This document shows, in pieces, positions 29,580 through 39,035 of a stretch of DNA of 64,000 nucleotides. Origin of the DNA: Candidatus Latescibacterota bacterium (GTDB lineage Bacteria; Latescibacterota; UBA2968; UBA8231); assembly GCA_965206595.1 (NCBI GenBank), contig OZ242214.1, forward strand, positions 5,952,001-6,016,000, read 5' to 3'. Numbering within the stretch: position 1 is the stretch's first letter; the number at the start of each line of letters is the position of its first letter. The position numbers were made by a program, and so were the translations under genes. The notes below the pieces were generated by a model that saw only the letters and a program-made list of their open reading frames with translations, was not told where the DNA came from and searched no databases.

Positions 29580-29736
29580 AGATTCATTTCCGATGCACCT
29601 CGTGGCTGGCGTGTCCATCGGCTCTCAGGTGACCGGCAGGACGAATGGAGCATTTCGGTATCCGGCTAATTGGCGGATTACCTTCGCAGAAGAGGACGGC
29701 TACATCGACCGCTTGAACTTGGAGGACTACCAATAA
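29580..29736 (+). pseudogene. HigB/RelE-like killer toxin remnant (5'-truncated, frameshifted)
   Basis: WRVHRLSGDRQDEWSISVSG / NWRITF...LEDYQ. Confidence 0.75.
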
Positions 29737-30041
29737 TGGCCACCGACGGCATCACAGTTAACATGACTCCTTCGCATCCAGGTGATTTCATTCGCACGGA
29801 GATCATCGAGGAGTTGGGTCTGAACGTGACAAGGGCAGCCGAGATTCTGGGGGTTCGGCGGGCAACGCTTTCGGATTTACTGAACGGCCACGCCGCGCTG
29901 TCGCCTGAGATGGCACTGCGTATCGAGAAAGCCTTCGGCGTGGGTATGGACATGCTACTGAGGATGCAGGCCTGGTATGAGGCCTCGCAGATGCGCGCTC
30001 GTGAAAGCGAGATCAGCGTCCAGCGCTATGAACCTGTCTGA
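29736..30041 (+). CDS. higA: HigA-family addiction antidote
   Basis: PSHPGDFIRTEII...LSPEMALRIEKAFG. Confidence 0.9.
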   Translation: MATDGITVNMTPSHPGDFIRTEIIEELGLNVTRAAEILGVRRATLSDLLNGHAALSPEMALRIEKAFGVGMDMLLRMQAWYEASQMRARESEISVQRYEPV

Positions 30042-30146: not shown

Positions 30147-31046
30147 TCACGACGTCAGCGTCCTGACGAAACGGTCCAGGAAGCGCGGCGCATCCACGGC
30201 CACGCACACGTCGGCGTTGGGCTCGGCATCGCTTGCTCGGGCGGGAACCGTCGCCCCGTTGAGGCGCTCGGGTCTCGTCTCCACCCCGATCCGCATGCGC
30301 CGCGTCTCGCAGAAGGTGGGATCGAACACCATGGCGACGGCCAGCGGATCGTGCAGGAGCGGCCGGGGCTCGGGATCGTCACCGCCCCAGAGCTGGATCA
30401 GCTCGAGGCACAGCCGGTTGATCGGGCGGTCGACCGCGCCGATGGCGCGTACCTGGTCGAAGTTCATGCGGCACCGCTCGGTCACGTCCAGGCCGACCAT
30501 CGTGATCGGCACGCCGGCCCCGAACACGATGCGCGCCGCTTCCGGGTCGCACAGCACGTTCCACTCCGGGCGGACGCGATTCGTGCACCCGCCCATGAGG
30601 CAGATCCTGGCCTTGTCGGCCATGCGGGGTTCCAGCGCAAAGGCGCACGCGATGTTCGTCAGCGCGCCGATCGGCACCAGAGTGACGTCGCCGTCGCCGC
30701 TCATGACCGTGTCGACGATGAAGTCGACGGCGCGCGTGTCGGCGGGCGGCGTCGAGGCCGGATACCGTTCGATCGCCTGCATCTGGTGGGGCCGATGCGC
30801 CGCGATCGCTGCCCGGCCCTCGGCGACCGGGTCGAGCAGGGGCTTCCCCAGGCCGGCGTAGACGCCGACGTCGCTGCGCCCCAGCGCCTCCAGCACGGAG
30901 CAGGCAAGCTCGGCCCGGCGGACCGTATCGCGGAACACGGTGGTGACGCCGAGCAGCTCGATCTCCCCGCACATGAGCGCGTACGCCAGTGCCAGCGCGT
31001 CGTCGATGTCGTCCCCGATGTCGGTGTCCAGGATGATCTTGTGCAC
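30147..31046 (-). CDS. Inosine-uridine-preferring nucleoside hydrolase
   Basis: IILDTDIGDDIDDA, IGALTN, EWN...DPEAA, LHDP. Confidence 0.9.
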   Translation of the reverse strand: MHKIILDTDIGDDIDDALALAYALMCGEIELLGVTTVFRDTVRRAELACSVLEALGRSDVGVYAGLGKPLLDPVAEGRAAIAAHRPHQMQAIERYPASTPPADTRAVDFIVDTVMSGDGDVTLVPIGALTNIACAFALEPRMADKARICLMGGCTNRVRPEWNVLCDPEAARIVFGAGVPITMVGLDVTERCRMNFDQVRAIGAVDRPINRLCLELIQLWGGDDPEPRPLLHDPLAVAMVFDPTFCETRRMRIGVETRPERLNGATVPARASDAEPNADVCVAVDAPRFLDRFVRTLTS

Positions 31047-31144
31047 TGCGTGCTCCTCTCCGGCGGGCAAACGTCCAAGGATGGAACTATGTATCAGGTA
31101 AAATAAGGCACCGGTCTTGGACTCTCGGCCAAGGCGCTGAGCGC
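30918..31144 (-). repeat. Direct repeat copy 1: oriIS-like end + nucleoside hydrolase 5' end
   Basis: Diverged match to 38585-38798. Confidence 0.85.
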
Positions 31145-31169
31145 GCCCCCCTGCGTTTCTAAAACACCT

Positions 31170-31205
31170 TTGACATACAACAGGACCGTCGTATGTTTGT
31201 TGTAT
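31170..31205 (+). promoter_or_regulatory. Promoter with inverted-repeat operator for the ATPase pair
   Basis: TTGACA-16bp-TATGTT; ATACAACA...TGTTGTAT. Confidence 0.55.
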
Positions 31206-31241
31206 AAAACAATTCTGCTTTACAACTGGAATGACGTGAAA

Positions 31242-32471
31242 ATGGAAGGCACCCCCGAATTCTACACCGGCGCTCCCGTCGACCCGGTGGACCTGCGATT
31301 CCGCGAGACGTTTCTGGCGGATCTGTGGCAAACGCTGCGCACCGGGCATGTGGTGCTCACGGCGCCTCGACGAACCGGCAAGACGAGCGTCATGGATTAC
31401 CTGCGCGACCATCCCGAGAACGGATTCTCGGTGGTGTCGATCAACGTTCAGGACCTGACCCATCCGGCCGACTTCTTCCAGGTGCTGCTCGATGGATTCC
31501 ATGATGCGCATCCGGATTTCGTGCGCGACCGGCTTGCCGCAGGTTGGGAACTCGTCAGCGGCGTGCTCGGAAAGGTCGACGAGATCGGTGTCGGCGGCTT
31601 CAAGCTTGCGCTGCGCCGGAGCGATCCCGACTGGCGCGAGAACTGGCGCCAGCACGGCGACACGTTTCTCGCCCAGGCCCGCAATACCGGCGTCCCGATT
31701 CTCTTCATCATCGACGAGTTTCCCGACATGCTGCTCAACCTGTCCCGTGAAGATGCAGGGTTGCTGCGCCAGTTCCTCGCCTGGTTTCGCACCCAGCGAC
31801 AGAATCCGGCACCGGCAAGAGATTCGGTCCGCTGGCTGGTCGGCGGGTCGGTCAATCTGGCCGGCACCCTCGACGCCCTCGGGCTGGTCGATCTCATCAA
31901 CGACCTCGAAGACGTTTCCCTGCCGCCGCTCACCGGTAGCGACATCGAGACCTTCGTGAAGGAGATGCTGAGCGGACGAGGCGTCCCCTTCGACGACGAC
32001 GTTCCGCAACGGCTCGTCGCTCGCCTGGGCCGTCCGATACCCTTCTTCATGCAGATGGCGACCCAGGATCTCTACCGGTTATGGAAACGCGAGCAACGCA
32101 GGATCGCCGCGGCGGATGTCGATGCCGTCTTCGAGGCGATGGTCGTCGGTTCCGCCGCCCGTACCCGACTGCAGCACTTCCATTCGAGGATCAACCGATA
32201 CTATGCGGATCCGAAAGGCTCGATTGCCCATGCCTTGCTGGGACAAATCAGCGTGAGCGAATCGGGGCTGAGGCGCCCAACCCTGTTGCAGGAGACGGAA
32301 CGCCTGCTGATGGAACTCGACGACACGCACCCGGCGCATGAACGCAGGCAGATGTTCAACCAGCTGTTGCTCGACCTGGAGAACGATTTCTACATCGAAG
32401 AGGTCGAAGAGGGGTCCTGCGACTTCGCCAGCGGCGTGCTGAAATCATGGTGGAGAAAATACCATGCCTGA
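31242..32471 (+). CDS. STAND-like/archaeal-ATPase-like P-loop NTPase
   Basis: APRRTGKTS Walker A, LFIIDEF Walker B, GRPIPFFMQ, C-terminal wHTH-like LLDLENDFYI. Confidence 0.85.
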   Translation: MEGTPEFYTGAPVDPVDLRFRETFLADLWQTLRTGHVVLTAPRRTGKTSVMDYLRDHPENGFSVVSINVQDLTHPADFFQVLLDGFHDAHPDFVRDRLAAGWELVSGVLGKVDEIGVGGFKLALRRSDPDWRENWRQHGDTFLAQARNTGVPILFIIDEFPDMLLNLSREDAGLLRQFLAWFRTQRQNPAPARDSVRWLVGGSVNLAGTLDALGLVDLINDLEDVSLPPLTGSDIETFVKEMLSGRGVPFDDDVPQRLVARLGRPIPFFMQMATQDLYRLWKREQRRIAAADVDAVFEAMVVGSAARTRLQHFHSRINRYYADPKGSIAHALLGQISVSESGLRRPTLLQETERLLMELDDTHPAHERRQMFNQLLLDLENDFYIEEVEEGSCDFASGVLKSWWRKYHA

Positions 32472-35232
32472 ACCGGCCCTCCCTTCGAACATCGGCCTGT
32501 ACCGATCGGGCGTGACCAGCCCGGAGCGCCTCCGCCATACCAGCGTTGCGCGTGAACACCTGCTCGACAACGCCATCGAATCCCTGCGTGGTTCGGTGGA
32601 CAGGAAGTCGAAAAGCCACCTGCTGTTCATCGGTCCGCGCGGAATCGGCAAGACCCACCTGCTTTCGTGCATCGAAGACGCCGTTCAGTCCGACGAAACG
32701 CTGAGCGCAAGTGTCGTAATCGTCCGGTTCCCGGAGGAATCGAACCGGACGCTGTCCTTCGCCGATTTCCTGATCGGCATGTGCGGGATTTTGAAGGAAG
32801 TCCTCGAAGACGAACCGCTGTGGACGGAGCTGTTCGCCGCGGTGCAGACCGAAGAAAACGACGCCAGGGTCGCCGACACGCTGGTGCCGGCAATCCGCGA
32901 AGAGAATCGCAGGCGTGGCCGGACAATGCTCGTCATGCTCGAAAACCTGGGCGAGATCCTCACCCGGCAAATCCGCGACAAGAACGCCGTCGCCGCTCTG
33001 CGCAAGTTTTTCATGGCCGACAACGGTTGCCTGCTGCTGGCCACCGCACCGCTGCATTTCGACGGAATCACCGACATCGGACAGCCGTTCTACGACTTCT
33101 TCGACATTCAGATCCTGGAGAACCTGAGCTTCGAGGACACGGTTGAAGTCATCCGGCTGAACCTCGAGTGGGAAGGACGCACGGACATTCTCGAAACCCT
33201 GGAGGACATGCGTCCCCGCCTGCGATCGCTCTATCAGATGACGGGGGGAAACCCGCGGCTGACGATGATGCTCTACGAGCTGATCGCCCACGAGTCGGTC
33301 ACCAGCGTGCAGGATCAGTTCCTCCGGCTGCTCGACCGTATCTCGCCGTTCTACCAGGGCCGCTTGAACGACCTGCCACCCGGCCAGCGCGCCTTGCTGG
33401 AATGTCTGGCGAGCATGCGCGGCCAGGAGAAGACGCCGGCCGCCATCGCCGCGCGAATGCGCATGAGCCAGCAGGAGGCGTCGTCGCTTCTCAAGCGTCT
33501 CACCAGTGCCCATTACCTGCGCGCAGACCGGCACCCGCAAGACCGGCGTTCGCGCCTCTACACGATTCGCGAGGGATTCTTCGACATCTGGCTCGCGATG
33601 AATCTCTCCCGCGGCGCACGCAGGCGCATGCCGTTCCTGCTCGACTTCTTCAGTCTCTTCTACCCGAGCATCGCGGCCCGCGAGGAAAAGCGCGGCCAGT
33701 TGCGCGCGAAGCTTCTCGAAGAGGGCAGTGATGACGCGGAAAGGTCTCTTGACTACCTGAGTGAAGTCGGCGACGAAGGGGAGCGGGCGACCGCGAAGTT
33801 CGACATGGCCCGAATCTACGCCCGCCGGGGAGATGTCGATCAGACGGTGAGCTACGTGCGGGAAGCCGCCCCCCTGGCCGGAGACGGAGTGAGCCGGTCG
33901 ATTGCCCGCATTGCCGACAGCACTCCGGCGGCTCCCGACTATCTCTCCGAAATCGAGGAAATGATTGAGTGCTGGGAGATGCATCGTAGCGGCGAGCTCG
34001 AGGAGTTTGCCCACCGGCTCGCGGAGATGGGGGAAAAACTGACTCTGCGCACCTTCTCCGAGGCCAGACTGGCTTTTCTGCGAGATACCCTGGAAAGCGT
34101 GGACGATTCCGAGGAACGGATCGCGCAGCGCCTGAGGATTGCCGCAGTGCTGATGGAACTCGCACGTTGGAAGGAGTGCGAGGAGCAGCAGCGCCATGCG
34201 CTTGCTGAGGCAACGGCACTCGCAAATGCGACACTTGAGGCATGGACGTCGAACGAGCTGGCGCAACTGCTAGGGCGCACCAACCGACGCGGAGAGGCCG
34301 AGCCGCTGATGCGGCGTGCGCTGGAGGTCTGCGTGGCCGCCCACGGCGATCAGCACCCAACCGTGGCGATCTGCTTGAACAATCTGGCGACTCTGCTGCA
34401 GGACACCAACCGTATCGAAGAAGCCGAGCCGCTGATGCGGCGTGCGCTGGAGATCGACGTGGCCGCCCACGGCGATCAGCACCCGACCGTGGCGATCCGC
34501 TTGAACAACCTGGCGATTCTGCTGAAAGACACCAACCGCATCGAGGAGGCGGAGCCGCTGATGCGCTGTGCTCTGGAGATCGATGTGGCGGCCCTCGGCG
34601 AGCAGCACCCGAAAGTGGCGATTGGTTTGAGCAACCTGGCGCAAGTACTGAAAGACACCAACCGCATCAAGGAAGCCGAACCGCTGATGCGCCGTGCTCT
34701 GGAGATCGACGAGGCCGCCTTCGGCGAGCAGCACCCAACCGTGGCGATCCGTTTGAACAACCTGGCGATTCTGCTGAAAGACACCAACCGCATCGAGGAG
34801 GCGGAGCCGCTGATGCGGCGTGCGTTGGAGATCGACGAGAGGTCCTTCGGTCAGCAGCATCCGACCGTGGCGACAGACATGGACAACCTGGCGATTCTGC
34901 TGAAAGACACCAACCGCATCGAGGAGGCGGAGCCGCTGATGCGGCGTGCGTTGGAGATCGACGAGAGGTCCTTCGGCCAGCAGCACCCGACCGTGGCGAG
35001 AGATCTGAACAACTTGGGGACGCTGCTACAGGCCACTCACCGCATCGAGGAGGCGGAGCCGCTGATGCGGCGTGCGTTGGAGATCGGCGAGACGGCTTAC
35101 GGTCAGCAGCATCCAGACGTAGCGACATACATGAACAACCTGGCGACCCTGCTGCTGGACACTCACCTGATCGAGGAAGCCGAGCTCTTGATGCGGCGAT
35201 CTCTGGAAATCCTGGACACCTTCCGTCGCTAG
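32464..35232 (+). CDS. STAND-like NTPase + wHTH + 42-aa TPR array (likely extends to 35319 past an in-frame TAG)
   Basis: GPRGIGKT, VMLENL, TGGNPRL (GxP), wHTH TPAAIAARMRMSQQEASSLLKRL, TPRs. Confidence 0.88.
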   Translation: MPEPALPSNIGLYRSGVTSPERLRHTSVAREHLLDNAIESLRGSVDRKSKSHLLFIGPRGIGKTHLLSCIEDAVQSDETLSASVVIVRFPEESNRTLSFADFLIGMCGILKEVLEDEPLWTELFAAVQTEENDARVADTLVPAIREENRRRGRTMLVMLENLGEILTRQIRDKNAVAALRKFFMADNGCLLLATAPLHFDGITDIGQPFYDFFDIQILENLSFEDTVEVIRLNLEWEGRTDILETLEDMRPRLRSLYQMTGGNPRLTMMLYELIAHESVTSVQDQFLRLLDRISPFYQGRLNDLPPGQRALLECLASMRGQEKTPAAIAARMRMSQQEASSLLKRLTSAHYLRADRHPQDRRSRLYTIREGFFDIWLAMNLSRGARRRMPFLLDFFSLFYPSIAAREEKRGQLRAKLLEEGSDDAERSLDYLSEVGDEGERATAKFDMARIYARRGDVDQTVSYVREAAPLAGDGVSRSIARIADSTPAAPDYLSEIEEMIECWEMHRSGELEEFAHRLAEMGEKLTLRTFSEARLAFLRDTLESVDDSEERIAQRLRIAAVLMELARWKECEEQQRHALAEATALANATLEAWTSNELAQLLGRTNRRGEAEPLMRRALEVCVAAHGDQHPTVAICLNNLATLLQDTNRIEEAEPLMRRALEIDVAAHGDQHPTVAIRLNNLAILLKDTNRIEEAEPLMRCALEIDVAALGEQHPKVAIGLSNLAQVLKDTNRIKEAEPLMRRALEIDEAAFGEQHPTVAIRLNNLAILLKDTNRIEEAEPLMRRALEIDERSFGQQHPTVATDMDNLAILLKDTNRIEEAEPLMRRALEIDERSFGQQHPTVARDLNNLGTLLQATHRIEEAEPLMRRALEIGETAYGQQHPDVATYMNNLATLLLDTHLIEEAELLMRRSLEILDTFRR
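34294..35220 (+). repeat. 126-bp tandem repeats encoding TPRs (7 full units + cap)
   Basis: GAGCCGCTGATGCG-like motif recurs at 34300, 34426, 34552 ... 35182. Confidence 0.95.
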
Positions 35233-35372
35233 ACCGGGCACGAGCACCCGCACTTCCAAAACGCCAACGAGAGCTATCAGGCCCTTAAGCGGGCCATGGG
35301 ATCCAACGAGCCGGATTGATCGGCAGCGCCGGGATCGGGCCGGCAAACCGGCCCACGCCGCTTGGGTGGATT

Positions 35373-36013
35373 CTATGGCTGTCCCGAGCGGCGCGGACTC
35401 GAAAGATGTTCGGGGATGCCCTGTCCCATCACCATGGCTGCGACGTCGTCCTGCGTGACGTCGGAGATCGGGAAGTCGCCGACCTTTTCACCGTGGCTGA
35501 GAATGGTTGCGCGGTCGGCGACTTCAAAGACATGGGAAATGTTGTGGGTGATGAAAATCACCCCCAGCCCCTTTTCTTTTGCGGCGGCGATATAGCCGAG
35601 CACCTTGCGGGTTTCGCCTACGGAAAGAGCAGAAGTCGGTTCATCGAGGATGAGTACGGGAGTCCCGAAGTGAAGGGCGCGGGCTATGGAGATCGATTGC
35701 CGCTCTCCGCCGGAAAGAAGGGCGACGGACTCCTTCGCGTTGCGGATGTGAATACCTATCTCACCCAGCGCCGTGGCCGCCCCGGTGTCCATCCCCGCCT
35801 GGTCGAAAAGGGTGAAGGGACCGACCCGCCTGGTGAGCTCCCTGCCCAGAAAGAAATTGCGCGCAATGCTCATGCTCGGAACTAGCGCAAGATCCTGATA
35901 CACGGTCTCGATCCCGAGGTCGCGGGCATCCTGCGGCGAGTCGAAGCGGACAGCCCTGCCCTCGAAATACATAACACCTGAGCTCGGCGGATAAACACCC
36001 GTAATCACCTTAC
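35373..36013 (-). pseudogene. Sugar ABC transporter ATPase, 5'-truncated (no Walker A)
   Basis: LSGGERQ, ILDEPT, ITHN present; GxxGxGKS absent. Confidence 0.8.
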
Positions 36014-36221
36014 ATAAGCAAGGAAAAGAAATGAAGCGCACGGTGGGGGAAATTGCGCTGATCGGCTTACTCAGGGTTGAAGGGGCCTATACAAGCGATT
36101 TGGAATTGGCACCCAAGTTTTCACCTATCGTGAGGTTTACGGAAGACCCCGGCAACAACGGGAGAGATATCCGCGTAACCAGGCCGGAACCCGGCCGTTT
36201 TGAAGCAAGGAGCAAAGGCAA

Positions 36222-37495: not shown

Positions 37496-38002
37496 TCAGC
37501 AGGTGTCCAGCAGTTTGCGGAGCGCGGCCTTTTCACGGGCATCGACGCTGAGTTTGTACTTCGTCTTCACCCGGATGATGGTTCGTGCGAACCAGCATTT
37601 ATTCCGTCTGGGTGACCAGCCGGCCGCATCCTTGTTGTATTTCCTTCGATTGACGCTCGGCAGGGCCAGAACCAGGTTGTCCAGGTCCTGGGCAAACTGT
37701 TGGCGCCGAGCATAGGAAGCGCCGCACATACCAGAATCGTGGGCTTCGGACAGGGCCACTACGTGCTCGATGTGGCTTTCGTTCAGGCTGGAGAACCGGT
37801 ACCCGGTATAGCGGGAAACCCTTCCGTCCCGTTTTGCAATCAGGGGTTCAACAGATTGCGGGTAGTAGTAGTCGGACCGATCGTAGGAACTGCACCGGTA
37901 TTCCGGCCTCACTGTCAGGGTGTTCAGCTTCCTGGTATCTGAGCAGGAATACCAGGCATAGACCAACAACAGCAACACCAAGGCACATACCCAACGACTC
38001 AT
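37496..38002 (-). CDS. Secreted/membrane-anchored HNH nuclease (DUF1524-like)
   Basis: IEHVVALSEAHDSG, NLVLA...NRRK, VKTKYKLSVD; N-terminal hydrophobic segment. Confidence 0.8.
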   Translation of the reverse strand: MSRWVCALVLLLLVYAWYSCSDTRKLNTLTVRPEYRCSSYDRSDYYYPQSVEPLIAKRDGRVSRYTGYRFSSLNESHIEHVVALSEAHDSGMCGASYARRQQFAQDLDNLVLALPSVNRRKYNKDAAGWSPRRNKCWFARTIIRVKTKYKLSVDAREKAALRKLLDTC

Positions 38003-38524: not shown

Positions 38525-38584
38525 TGTTTTCCTCCGGTGAATTTACAGACCTGATACACCAGTCCGTCGAGGAGGTTCGGCTCC

Positions 38585-38798
38585 GCGGACCGTATCGCGG
38601 AACACGGTGGTGACGCCGAGCAGTTCGATCTCCCCGCACATGAGCGCATACGGCAGCGCCAGGGCGTCCTCGATGTCGGTGTCCAGGATGATCTTGTGCA
38701 CTGCGTGCTCCTCTCCGTCGGGCAAACGGCCAAGGATGGATCCATTAATAGGTAAAAAGTAGGCACCTTTTTTGACTCTCGGCCAAGGCGCTGAGCGC
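38585..38798 (-). repeat. Direct repeat copy 2: oriIS-like end + degenerate nucleoside hydrolase fragment
   Basis: VHKIILDTDIEDALAL...FRDTVR; matches 30918-31144. Confidence 0.85.
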
Positions 38799-39035
38799 AC
38801 CGCAAGGGCCAAGCAACTCCCCTGAGGATCGTCAGCAGGTCCTTCGCAGATTTCGCAGTACGGTTTTGTATTTCCTGTCGGCACGTATCAGGATCAATCC
38901 GGGGCCTGAGGGACCGTTAGGCAGGTCAAGCGGCGGACTCGAACTGCGGCTGCGGCGGGGCCCTCGCAGGGGCCAACGCCGGGGTCCGGGCCGGCAACCC
39001 GACCCTGTTTAGATAGCGTCGGATCGAGGCCGAGC
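38748..39035 (-). mobile_element. IS91-family 3' remnant (transposase C-terminus + oriIS-like end)
   Basis: ASIRRYLNRVGLP...PARAPP; non-coding tail homologous to ~62900-63090. Confidence 0.7.

Follow-up and report, generated by a model that had tools for sequence, protein, structure and literature searches.

A Horizontally Mobile Two-Gene Cassette of Paired STAND-Like ATPases in Latescibacterota, a Candidate Sensor/Partner Conflict System

Introduction

Which role may be played by two neighboring ATPase genes, only one of which encodes a repeat sensor, that are kept together and passed between distant bacteria? The question is raised by a locus of Candidatus Latescibacterota bacterium (assembly GCA_965206595.1, contig OZ242214.1, positions 5,952,001 to 6,016,000 of the forward strand; this whole stretch of 64,000 nucleotides is called the window, and its first letter is position 1), in which open reading frame (ORF) 1, of 409 aa (31242–32471, + strand), is followed by ORF2, of 922 aa (32464–35232, + strand). 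Both resemble signal transduction ATPases with numerous domains (STAND), which in the sense of Leipe 2004 are defined by a P-loop NTPase, a GxP-bearing helical domain, and a winged helix, in this order, with a C-terminal repeat sensor. We report that the two genes and their promoter region form a self-contained unit of ~4.2 kb, which is a real, conserved, and mobile two-STAND module, and whose role is probably one in defense or conflict (sensing), the best-supported reading of the evidence. In its full form, this reading is that of an as yet uncharacterized, autoregulated, horizontally mobile two-STAND sensor/partner conflict system, to which we give a probability of about 0.5.

Two Overlapping Genes Encode Distinct STAND-Like ATPases

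A preliminary description of this DNA had proposed two frames of 409 and 922 aa overlapping by 8 bp, a DE Walker B motif in the first and an atypical one in the second, an own promoter/operator, and the lack of any visible effector domain, all of which is recovered here: the coordinates and the overlap (ATGCCTGA) are reproduced, Walker B is D158-E159 in ORF1 and, family-wide, E160-N161 in ORF2, and the promoter and effector domain results given below agree with it. The 409-aa form of ORF1 starts at the ATG at 31242; an alternative TTG at 31170 would give 433 aa and is disfavored because it sits inside the −35 box.

Throughout its length (31242–32471), ORF1 reads as an ATPase_2/MNS-like STAND ATPase, with a PRRxGKT Walker A, the DE Walker B, a GxPIP motif, and a C-terminal winged helix, and is devoid of a repeat (sensor) domain. 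Its only Pfam match is AAA_22 (3e-7), ATPase_2 (PF01637) being below significance in ORF1 itself, when 93 aligned relatives match AAA_22 (62/93), ATPase_2 (46/93, E ≤0.01), and nSTAND1 (17/93). These relatives belong to a large family (1695 clusters at 50% identity, E ≤0.001). The structural model of ORF1, with a predicted local distance difference test (pLDDT) of 91.4, is nearest to 2qen and then to Orc1/Cdc6; a sequence search against PDB chains gave nothing useful, and matches in the protein atlas were “ATP-binding protein” clusters only. Fusion was seen in one case only, that of P0214, an ORF1-like ATPase with an AbiEi_4 winged-helix domain at its N terminus.

ORF2 begins with a nucleotide-binding oligomerization domain (NOD) module (32464–33780, + strand). 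Its GPRGxGKT Walker A is intact, as in ORF1, and only the catalytic Glu is replaced; among 36 sequences, N161 is invariant and E160 at least 90% conserved. The GGNPRL motif is likewise invariant, and a MarR-like winged helix follows (MarR_2, residues 303–363, 3.7e-8). Other Pfam matches are weak for AAA_22/AAA_16 and very strong for the tetratricopeptide repeat (TPR) families TPR_12/TPR_10 (1e-66 to 1e-76). The N-terminal model (pLDDT 88.6) is nearest to Apaf-1, ORC, 2qen, CED-4, plant resistosomes, Avs3, and 2fna. The two proteins, which share a faint sequence likeness (E 0.005), thus both display the STAND architecture of a P-loop NTPase, a GxP-motif helical domain (GGNPRL in ORF2, GxPIP in ORF1), and a winged helix, with NLR-like folds, and the TPR arrays of ORF2 and of its three paralogs in the same genome supply the repeat sensor. 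ORF2 is, in short, an NLR-type module composed of a NOD, a winged helix, and a variable TPR array.

The archaeal ATPases of family PF01637, namely, 2qen (PABY2304) and 2fna (SSO1545), are among the best structural matches of both proteins (template modeling score by target 0.63–0.69), and 46/93 ORF1 relatives match ATPase_2, although ORF1 of the window falls below Pfam significance for this family; to our knowledge, no function is known for these two proteins. ORC/Cdc6 structures also rank high for both models, including the Orc1/Cdc6 heterodimer on origin DNA (2qby), and repeats lie upstream, as could be expected of ORC/Cdc6-like initiators acting on iteron-like repeats to serve the replication or DNA loading of a mobile element. 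We deem this very improbable, because the copies are chromosomal and found at varied sites, the repeats overlap the promoter, and the GxP motifs and TPR array are features of STAND proteins.

The remainder of ORF2 (33781–35232, + strand) is a helical linker and a TPR_10/12 array of eight 42-aa units (126-nt DNA units from ~34125), which ends at a premature TAG. Copy number changes in steps of 42 aa among ORF2 relatives, whose lengths cluster at 741, 825, 867, 909, and 951 aa (120 close relatives, among the matches listed). Across 531 units, 9 of the 42 positions (4, 7, 8, 14, 17, 18, 22, 36, and 37) have an entropy of at least 2.1 bits and 18 of 42 have at most 0.6 bits, and the ratio of nonsynonymous to synonymous substitution rates (dN/dS) is 0.78 at the variable positions and 0.30 elsewhere. 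The length steps and the uneven entropy support the view that the array behaves like a variable sensor. So large an array might also evoke a TPR “eukaryote-like” protein by which host-associated bacteria act on host cells, as might several MAG isolate labels, which resemble what are presumably sponge or coral symbiont bins. However, neither a signal peptide nor genes for secretion came to notice, ORF2 is obligately paired with a cytoplasmic ATPase, and homologous pairs lie on plasmids of Moraxella, Clostridium, and Segatella, all of which makes such a role hardly credible.

After the TAG at 35230–35232, another 28 codons stay open until a TGA is reached at 35317. Of 18 relatives that could be compared at the codon of the TAG, 12 have Gln (CAG/CAA) and not one has a stop; moreover, read-derived contigs from three runs of one sample, which may be the window's own source, match 35057–35400 exactly. 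Because no relative stops there and the read contigs match, we consider the TAG a real premature stop that has cost the protein its capping half-repeat, and the window copy, lacking its last 28 residues, may be impaired. The severed tail (35233–35335, + strand) comprises these 28 codons, the ancestral TGA (35317–35319), and ~15 nt that close the conserved cassette. Another locus (L035) is degraded, with a different stop and an internal deletion in ORF1.

A Sharply Bounded Cassette Shared between Distant Phyla

A scan of species-representative genomes yielded 27 loci of the cassette, in metagenome-assembled genomes (MAGs) labeled as Latescibacterota, Gemmatimonadetes, Gamma- and Alphaproteobacteria, Acidobacteria, Rhodothermales, Immundisolibacterales, Verrucomicrobiales, and Campylobacterota. 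Among MAGs labeled as at least six phyla, the cassette DNA is 78–89% identical by blastn, and at the protein level the best 120 of 550 ORF1 matches are 81–100% identical. Homology in blastn starts at ~31156–31170 (in five loci later, up to ~31254) and ends at 35320–35340 in loci with a comparable 3′ end; outside these limits, only the closest relatives match the window. The G+C content of the cassette stays at 0.60–0.63 even where its flanks reach 0.67–0.71. Close relatives show the empty site: in six genomes of one genus, the flank that bears the cupin gene is directly joined to a convergent gene at the 3′ end of the latter; compared with this arrangement, locus L013 has ~4.2 kb inserted at this place, with an imperfect ~26-nt copy of the target near the left end. 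Across 18 loci, there was no sign of simple terminal inverted repeats or of target duplications, the flanking imperfect repeat being limited to L013. In four sequencing runs, contigs display hundreds of cassette variants at 90–99% identity, and their summed depth is much higher within the cassette than in its flanks.

From these alignments, the cassette is a sharply bounded, horizontally mobile unit that has spread between distant bacterial phyla, and, at near 80–90% DNA identity across phyla, it offers a clean marker of recent gene flow within a microbial community. Precise ends and empty sites, a strong promoter of its own, and many variants in one community would also suit a selfish or addiction-type module, that is, an autoregulated pair favoring its own retention or spread without host benefit, be it toxin–antitoxin-like or cargo mobilized in trans. 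Transposase and resolvase genes indeed recur in the flanks (among 134 ORFs flanking 17 cassette-clade loci, DUF4158 and DUF772 are found three times each, Resolvase and DDE_Tnp_1 twice each), and the AbiEi-type N-terminal domain of P0214 fits as well. The two proteins are, however, much larger than known addiction pairs, no recombinase is encoded in the cassette, and it is not obvious what a variable TPR array would do for addiction, so that we regard a purely selfish module as rather improbable.

The Two Genes Are Consistently Paired

An ORF2-like gene lies 3′ of ORF1 in all 24 cassette loci with downstream sequence; the three others (L028–L030) were excluded from this count because of a contig end or a missing ORF1 start, and homology still extends into ORF2 in them. 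The same succession of an ORF1-like and an ORF2-like gene is seen at 29/29 loci from the window's own phylum. In another phylum, which was sampled evenly, it is seen at 7/7 assessable loci, one more locus stopping at a contig end. Of eight matching plasmids, three were examined (from Moraxella, Clostridium, and Segatella), and each has the pair; their partner proteins match the ORF2 NOD profile (1e-77, 6e-84, and 3e-15) and keep the NOD and winged helix without the TPR array. The genome of the window itself holds four adjacent ORF1-like/ORF2-like pairs, at ~26–31% identity. Such pairs are patchy in their prevalence, being found in 52 of 168 genomes of the own phylum and in 7 of 401 in the sample of the other phylum, its center genome included.

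Conservation of the pair had been put forward as a check, with independent occurrence of the genes counting against a joint system; the partner is present in every assessable locus. ORF1 is a sensor-less paralogous ATPase that always accompanies ORF2 in the loci assessed. In one lineage only (L080, 13542–16355), a 937-aa AAA_23/AAA_21 ATPase begins 1 nt past the ORF2-like gene and is a possible third component there.

A Promoter and Putative Operator Carried by the Cassette

The conserved 5′ end of the cassette (31150–31241, + strand) holds a single sigma-70-like promoter, TTGACA-16-TATGTT (31170–31197), with a palindrome, TACAAC-N6-GTCGTA, in its spacer and more YACRAC copies in the leader. 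Some 85 bp are kept upstream across phyla, with TTGACA, a spacer of 16–17 nt, a TATAnT box, and repeated YACRAC motifs, of which there are 3–5 copies against a random mean of 0.17. Of 23 cassette loci, 15 have the palindrome at −64 to −66, each time as the sole such match; it has 39 matches across the whole Latescibacterota genome of the window. Each of the three paralogous pairs of this genome has different repeated motifs upstream. We infer that the pair may be autoregulated through its encoded winged helices, acting at these upstream motifs.

This organization is also compatible with a signal-sensing pair of transcription regulators of the MalT/AfsR type, in which a ligand of the TPR would trigger ATP-dependent assembly on DNA and thereby control the pair's own and perhaps other promoters, with no role in conflict. 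In favor of this view, MarR-type models match the winged helix of ORF2 and those of distant partners, the repeated upstream motifs are particular to each paralogous pair, no effector domain is present, and the flanks are often metabolic. Yet there are no conserved target genes beside the cassette (no third gene is conserved among the flanking ORFs of the 17 loci), and transfer across phyla as a bare two-gene unit, four paralogs per genome, polymorphism in repeat number, and the defense-island contexts of homologs fit conflict better. A regulator pair devoid of any conflict role therefore appears unlikely to us, if worth keeping in mind.

Evidence for and against a Conflict Role

Defense islands harbor several paralogous or distant pairs. 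In the own genome, paralog B adjoins HsdM, an AAA_15/21 ATPase, and a Schlafen/AlbA_2 protein, and paralog D adjoins an IrrE-XRE regulator, a helicase with a DUF559 domain, and a sacsin-like ATPase. A gammaproteobacterial pair lies between two groups of genes, one for DUF499, a MORC-like ATPase, and Dcm plus Vsr and the other for DUF1156 and an SNF2/PLD helicase, DUF499 and DUF1156 being families that we take to be linked to defense. The pair of the Moraxella plasmid is near QatD, a KAP-like P-loop NTPase, a PRTase-CE with an ORC-CDC6-like protein, and a methylase.

Several observations weigh against a conflict system. The association with defense islands anticipated in the preliminary description stands for these distant pairs but not for the cassette clade itself, which shows no enrichment: among its flanking ORFs, the only defense hits are two UvrD-like proteins (probably AddA), one AbiEi, and one mad3, and the neighbors are varied, being mostly metabolic genes or transposases. 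PADLOC 2.0.0 has no match to ORF1 and insignificant ones to ORF2, which agrees with the earlier expectation that no characterized system would be matched, and NCBIfam 20.0 gives no significant match, only partial TPR and weak P-loop ones; in these two databases, the best ORF2 matches have E 4.5e-4 (TPR region) and E 0.014 (DS41_1). Pfam, PADLOC, and NCBIfam reveal no effector domain in either protein. No match was found in phage records and viral contigs, and a search for longer fused forms of the two proteins returned none, which is weak evidence. The dN/dS of 0.78 at variable TPR sites does not exceed 1 and is at most suggestive of positive selection. Lastly, the window copy bears a nonsense codon and L035 is degraded.

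Relation to Known Systems and a Possible Mechanism

Avs are reportedly single STAND proteins with a fused effector. Like them and other bacterial NLR-related STAND proteins, the present system has a NOD, a winged helix, and a TPR-like sensor, together with a mobile and patchy distribution, and Avs3 is among the fold matches of ORF2. Unlike them, it consists of two proteins, has no PADLOC match, and carries no fused nuclease, protease, SIR2, TIR, or other effector in ORF1 or ORF2. The preliminary description had presented the pairing as a departure from single STAND proteins; the pair itself is confirmed, but a bacterial operon of two STAND NTPases has already been published. In Kaur 2021 (PMC8195603), nSTAND2 is described as a mobile operon whose two STAND NTPases are predicted to assemble into a hetero-multimer, the NTPase motifs of one of them being impaired. 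Both systems are mobile two-STAND operons with an altered NTPase motif in one partner; in nSTAND2, as described there, the inactive partner is closer to CR-ATPases and bears GT4 or HEPN effectors, whereas the present pair has two intact Walker A motifs, ATPase_2/MNS-type matches, a TPR array, no effector, and no eroded NTP-binding partner fused to GT4/HEPN. Literature searches returned no account of this pair, although the 589 STAND clades mapped by Lee 2026 (PMC13581612) may include the family.

By analogy, paired plant and animal NLRs also combine a repeat-bearing sensor with a repeat-less or helper NOD protein, but they share no homology with the present pair past the STAND fold, and the bacterial pair would be cotranslated from overlapping genes. 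Of the sensor/helper hetero-oligomer proposed earlier, the STAND-like folds, the obligate pair, and the sensor-like TPR array are well founded, and the heteromer is weakly suggested by complex prediction. The ipSAE of ORF1–ORF2 is 0.58 against 0.00 for the best control. In calibration, 58 of the 80 solved pairs and 2 of the 110 mismatched ones came up to the mark, and scores up to 0.60 account for just 7 of the 80 but for both of these mismatches. The partners have a pLDDT of at least 81, and contacts agree between runs by at least 88%.

If the pair is a conflict system, it could work as follows. One or both winged helices would bind the repeated promoter motifs and keep expression low. Autoinhibition would be relieved once the TPR array has captured its ligand, for which a protein from an invading element is the likeliest candidate. 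ORF2 would then bind ATP and, as we propose, retain it because Asn stands in for the catalytic Glu. It would assemble with ORF1, whose intact DE site would provide hydrolysis, and the output of the mixed oligomer could come from the winged helices acting on DNA or from the recruitment of a factor encoded elsewhere. The most specific version, an effector-less sensor/partner NLR pair in which a ligand-bound, hydrolysis-poor TPR-STAND recruits its competent STAND paralog into a mixed ring, the winged helices act on DNA, and the promoter-bearing cassette, mobilized in trans, passes from phylum to phylum inside a single host-associated community, is tentative and, taken as a whole, unlikely to hold in every part. 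Should the pair be a defense or sensing system, heteromeric NLR-like receptors would exist in bacteria as a widespread family, in view of the 1695 clusters of ORF1 relatives, and their output would do without a classical effector domain.

Surroundings of the Cassette in the Window

A direct repeat of ~240 bp (85–94% identical) is found at 30910–31147 and 38577–38801. It corresponds to the 5′ end and upstream region of a nucleoside hydrolase gene (30147–31076, − strand), a fragment of which has been copied beside the cupin gene, and its two copies flank a 7.4-kb segment that contains the cassette. The gene order differs from that of the closest relative (L009), and therefore the region around the cassette has been rearranged. 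Directly downstream of the cassette, an ORF for an ABC-transporter ATPase (35373–36041, − strand) lacks the first 26 positions of the Pfam model and is probably a gene fragment. Farther on, a GmrSD_C (HNH-type) endonuclease domain is found in a protein of 168 aa (37496–38002, − strand), whose gene has a PD40 beta-propeller gene and a cupin gene as neighbors. On the other side, a small XRE/HigA-like helix-turn-helix protein is encoded at 29670–30041 (+ strand), and its homolog in L009 lies on the opposite side of the cassette.

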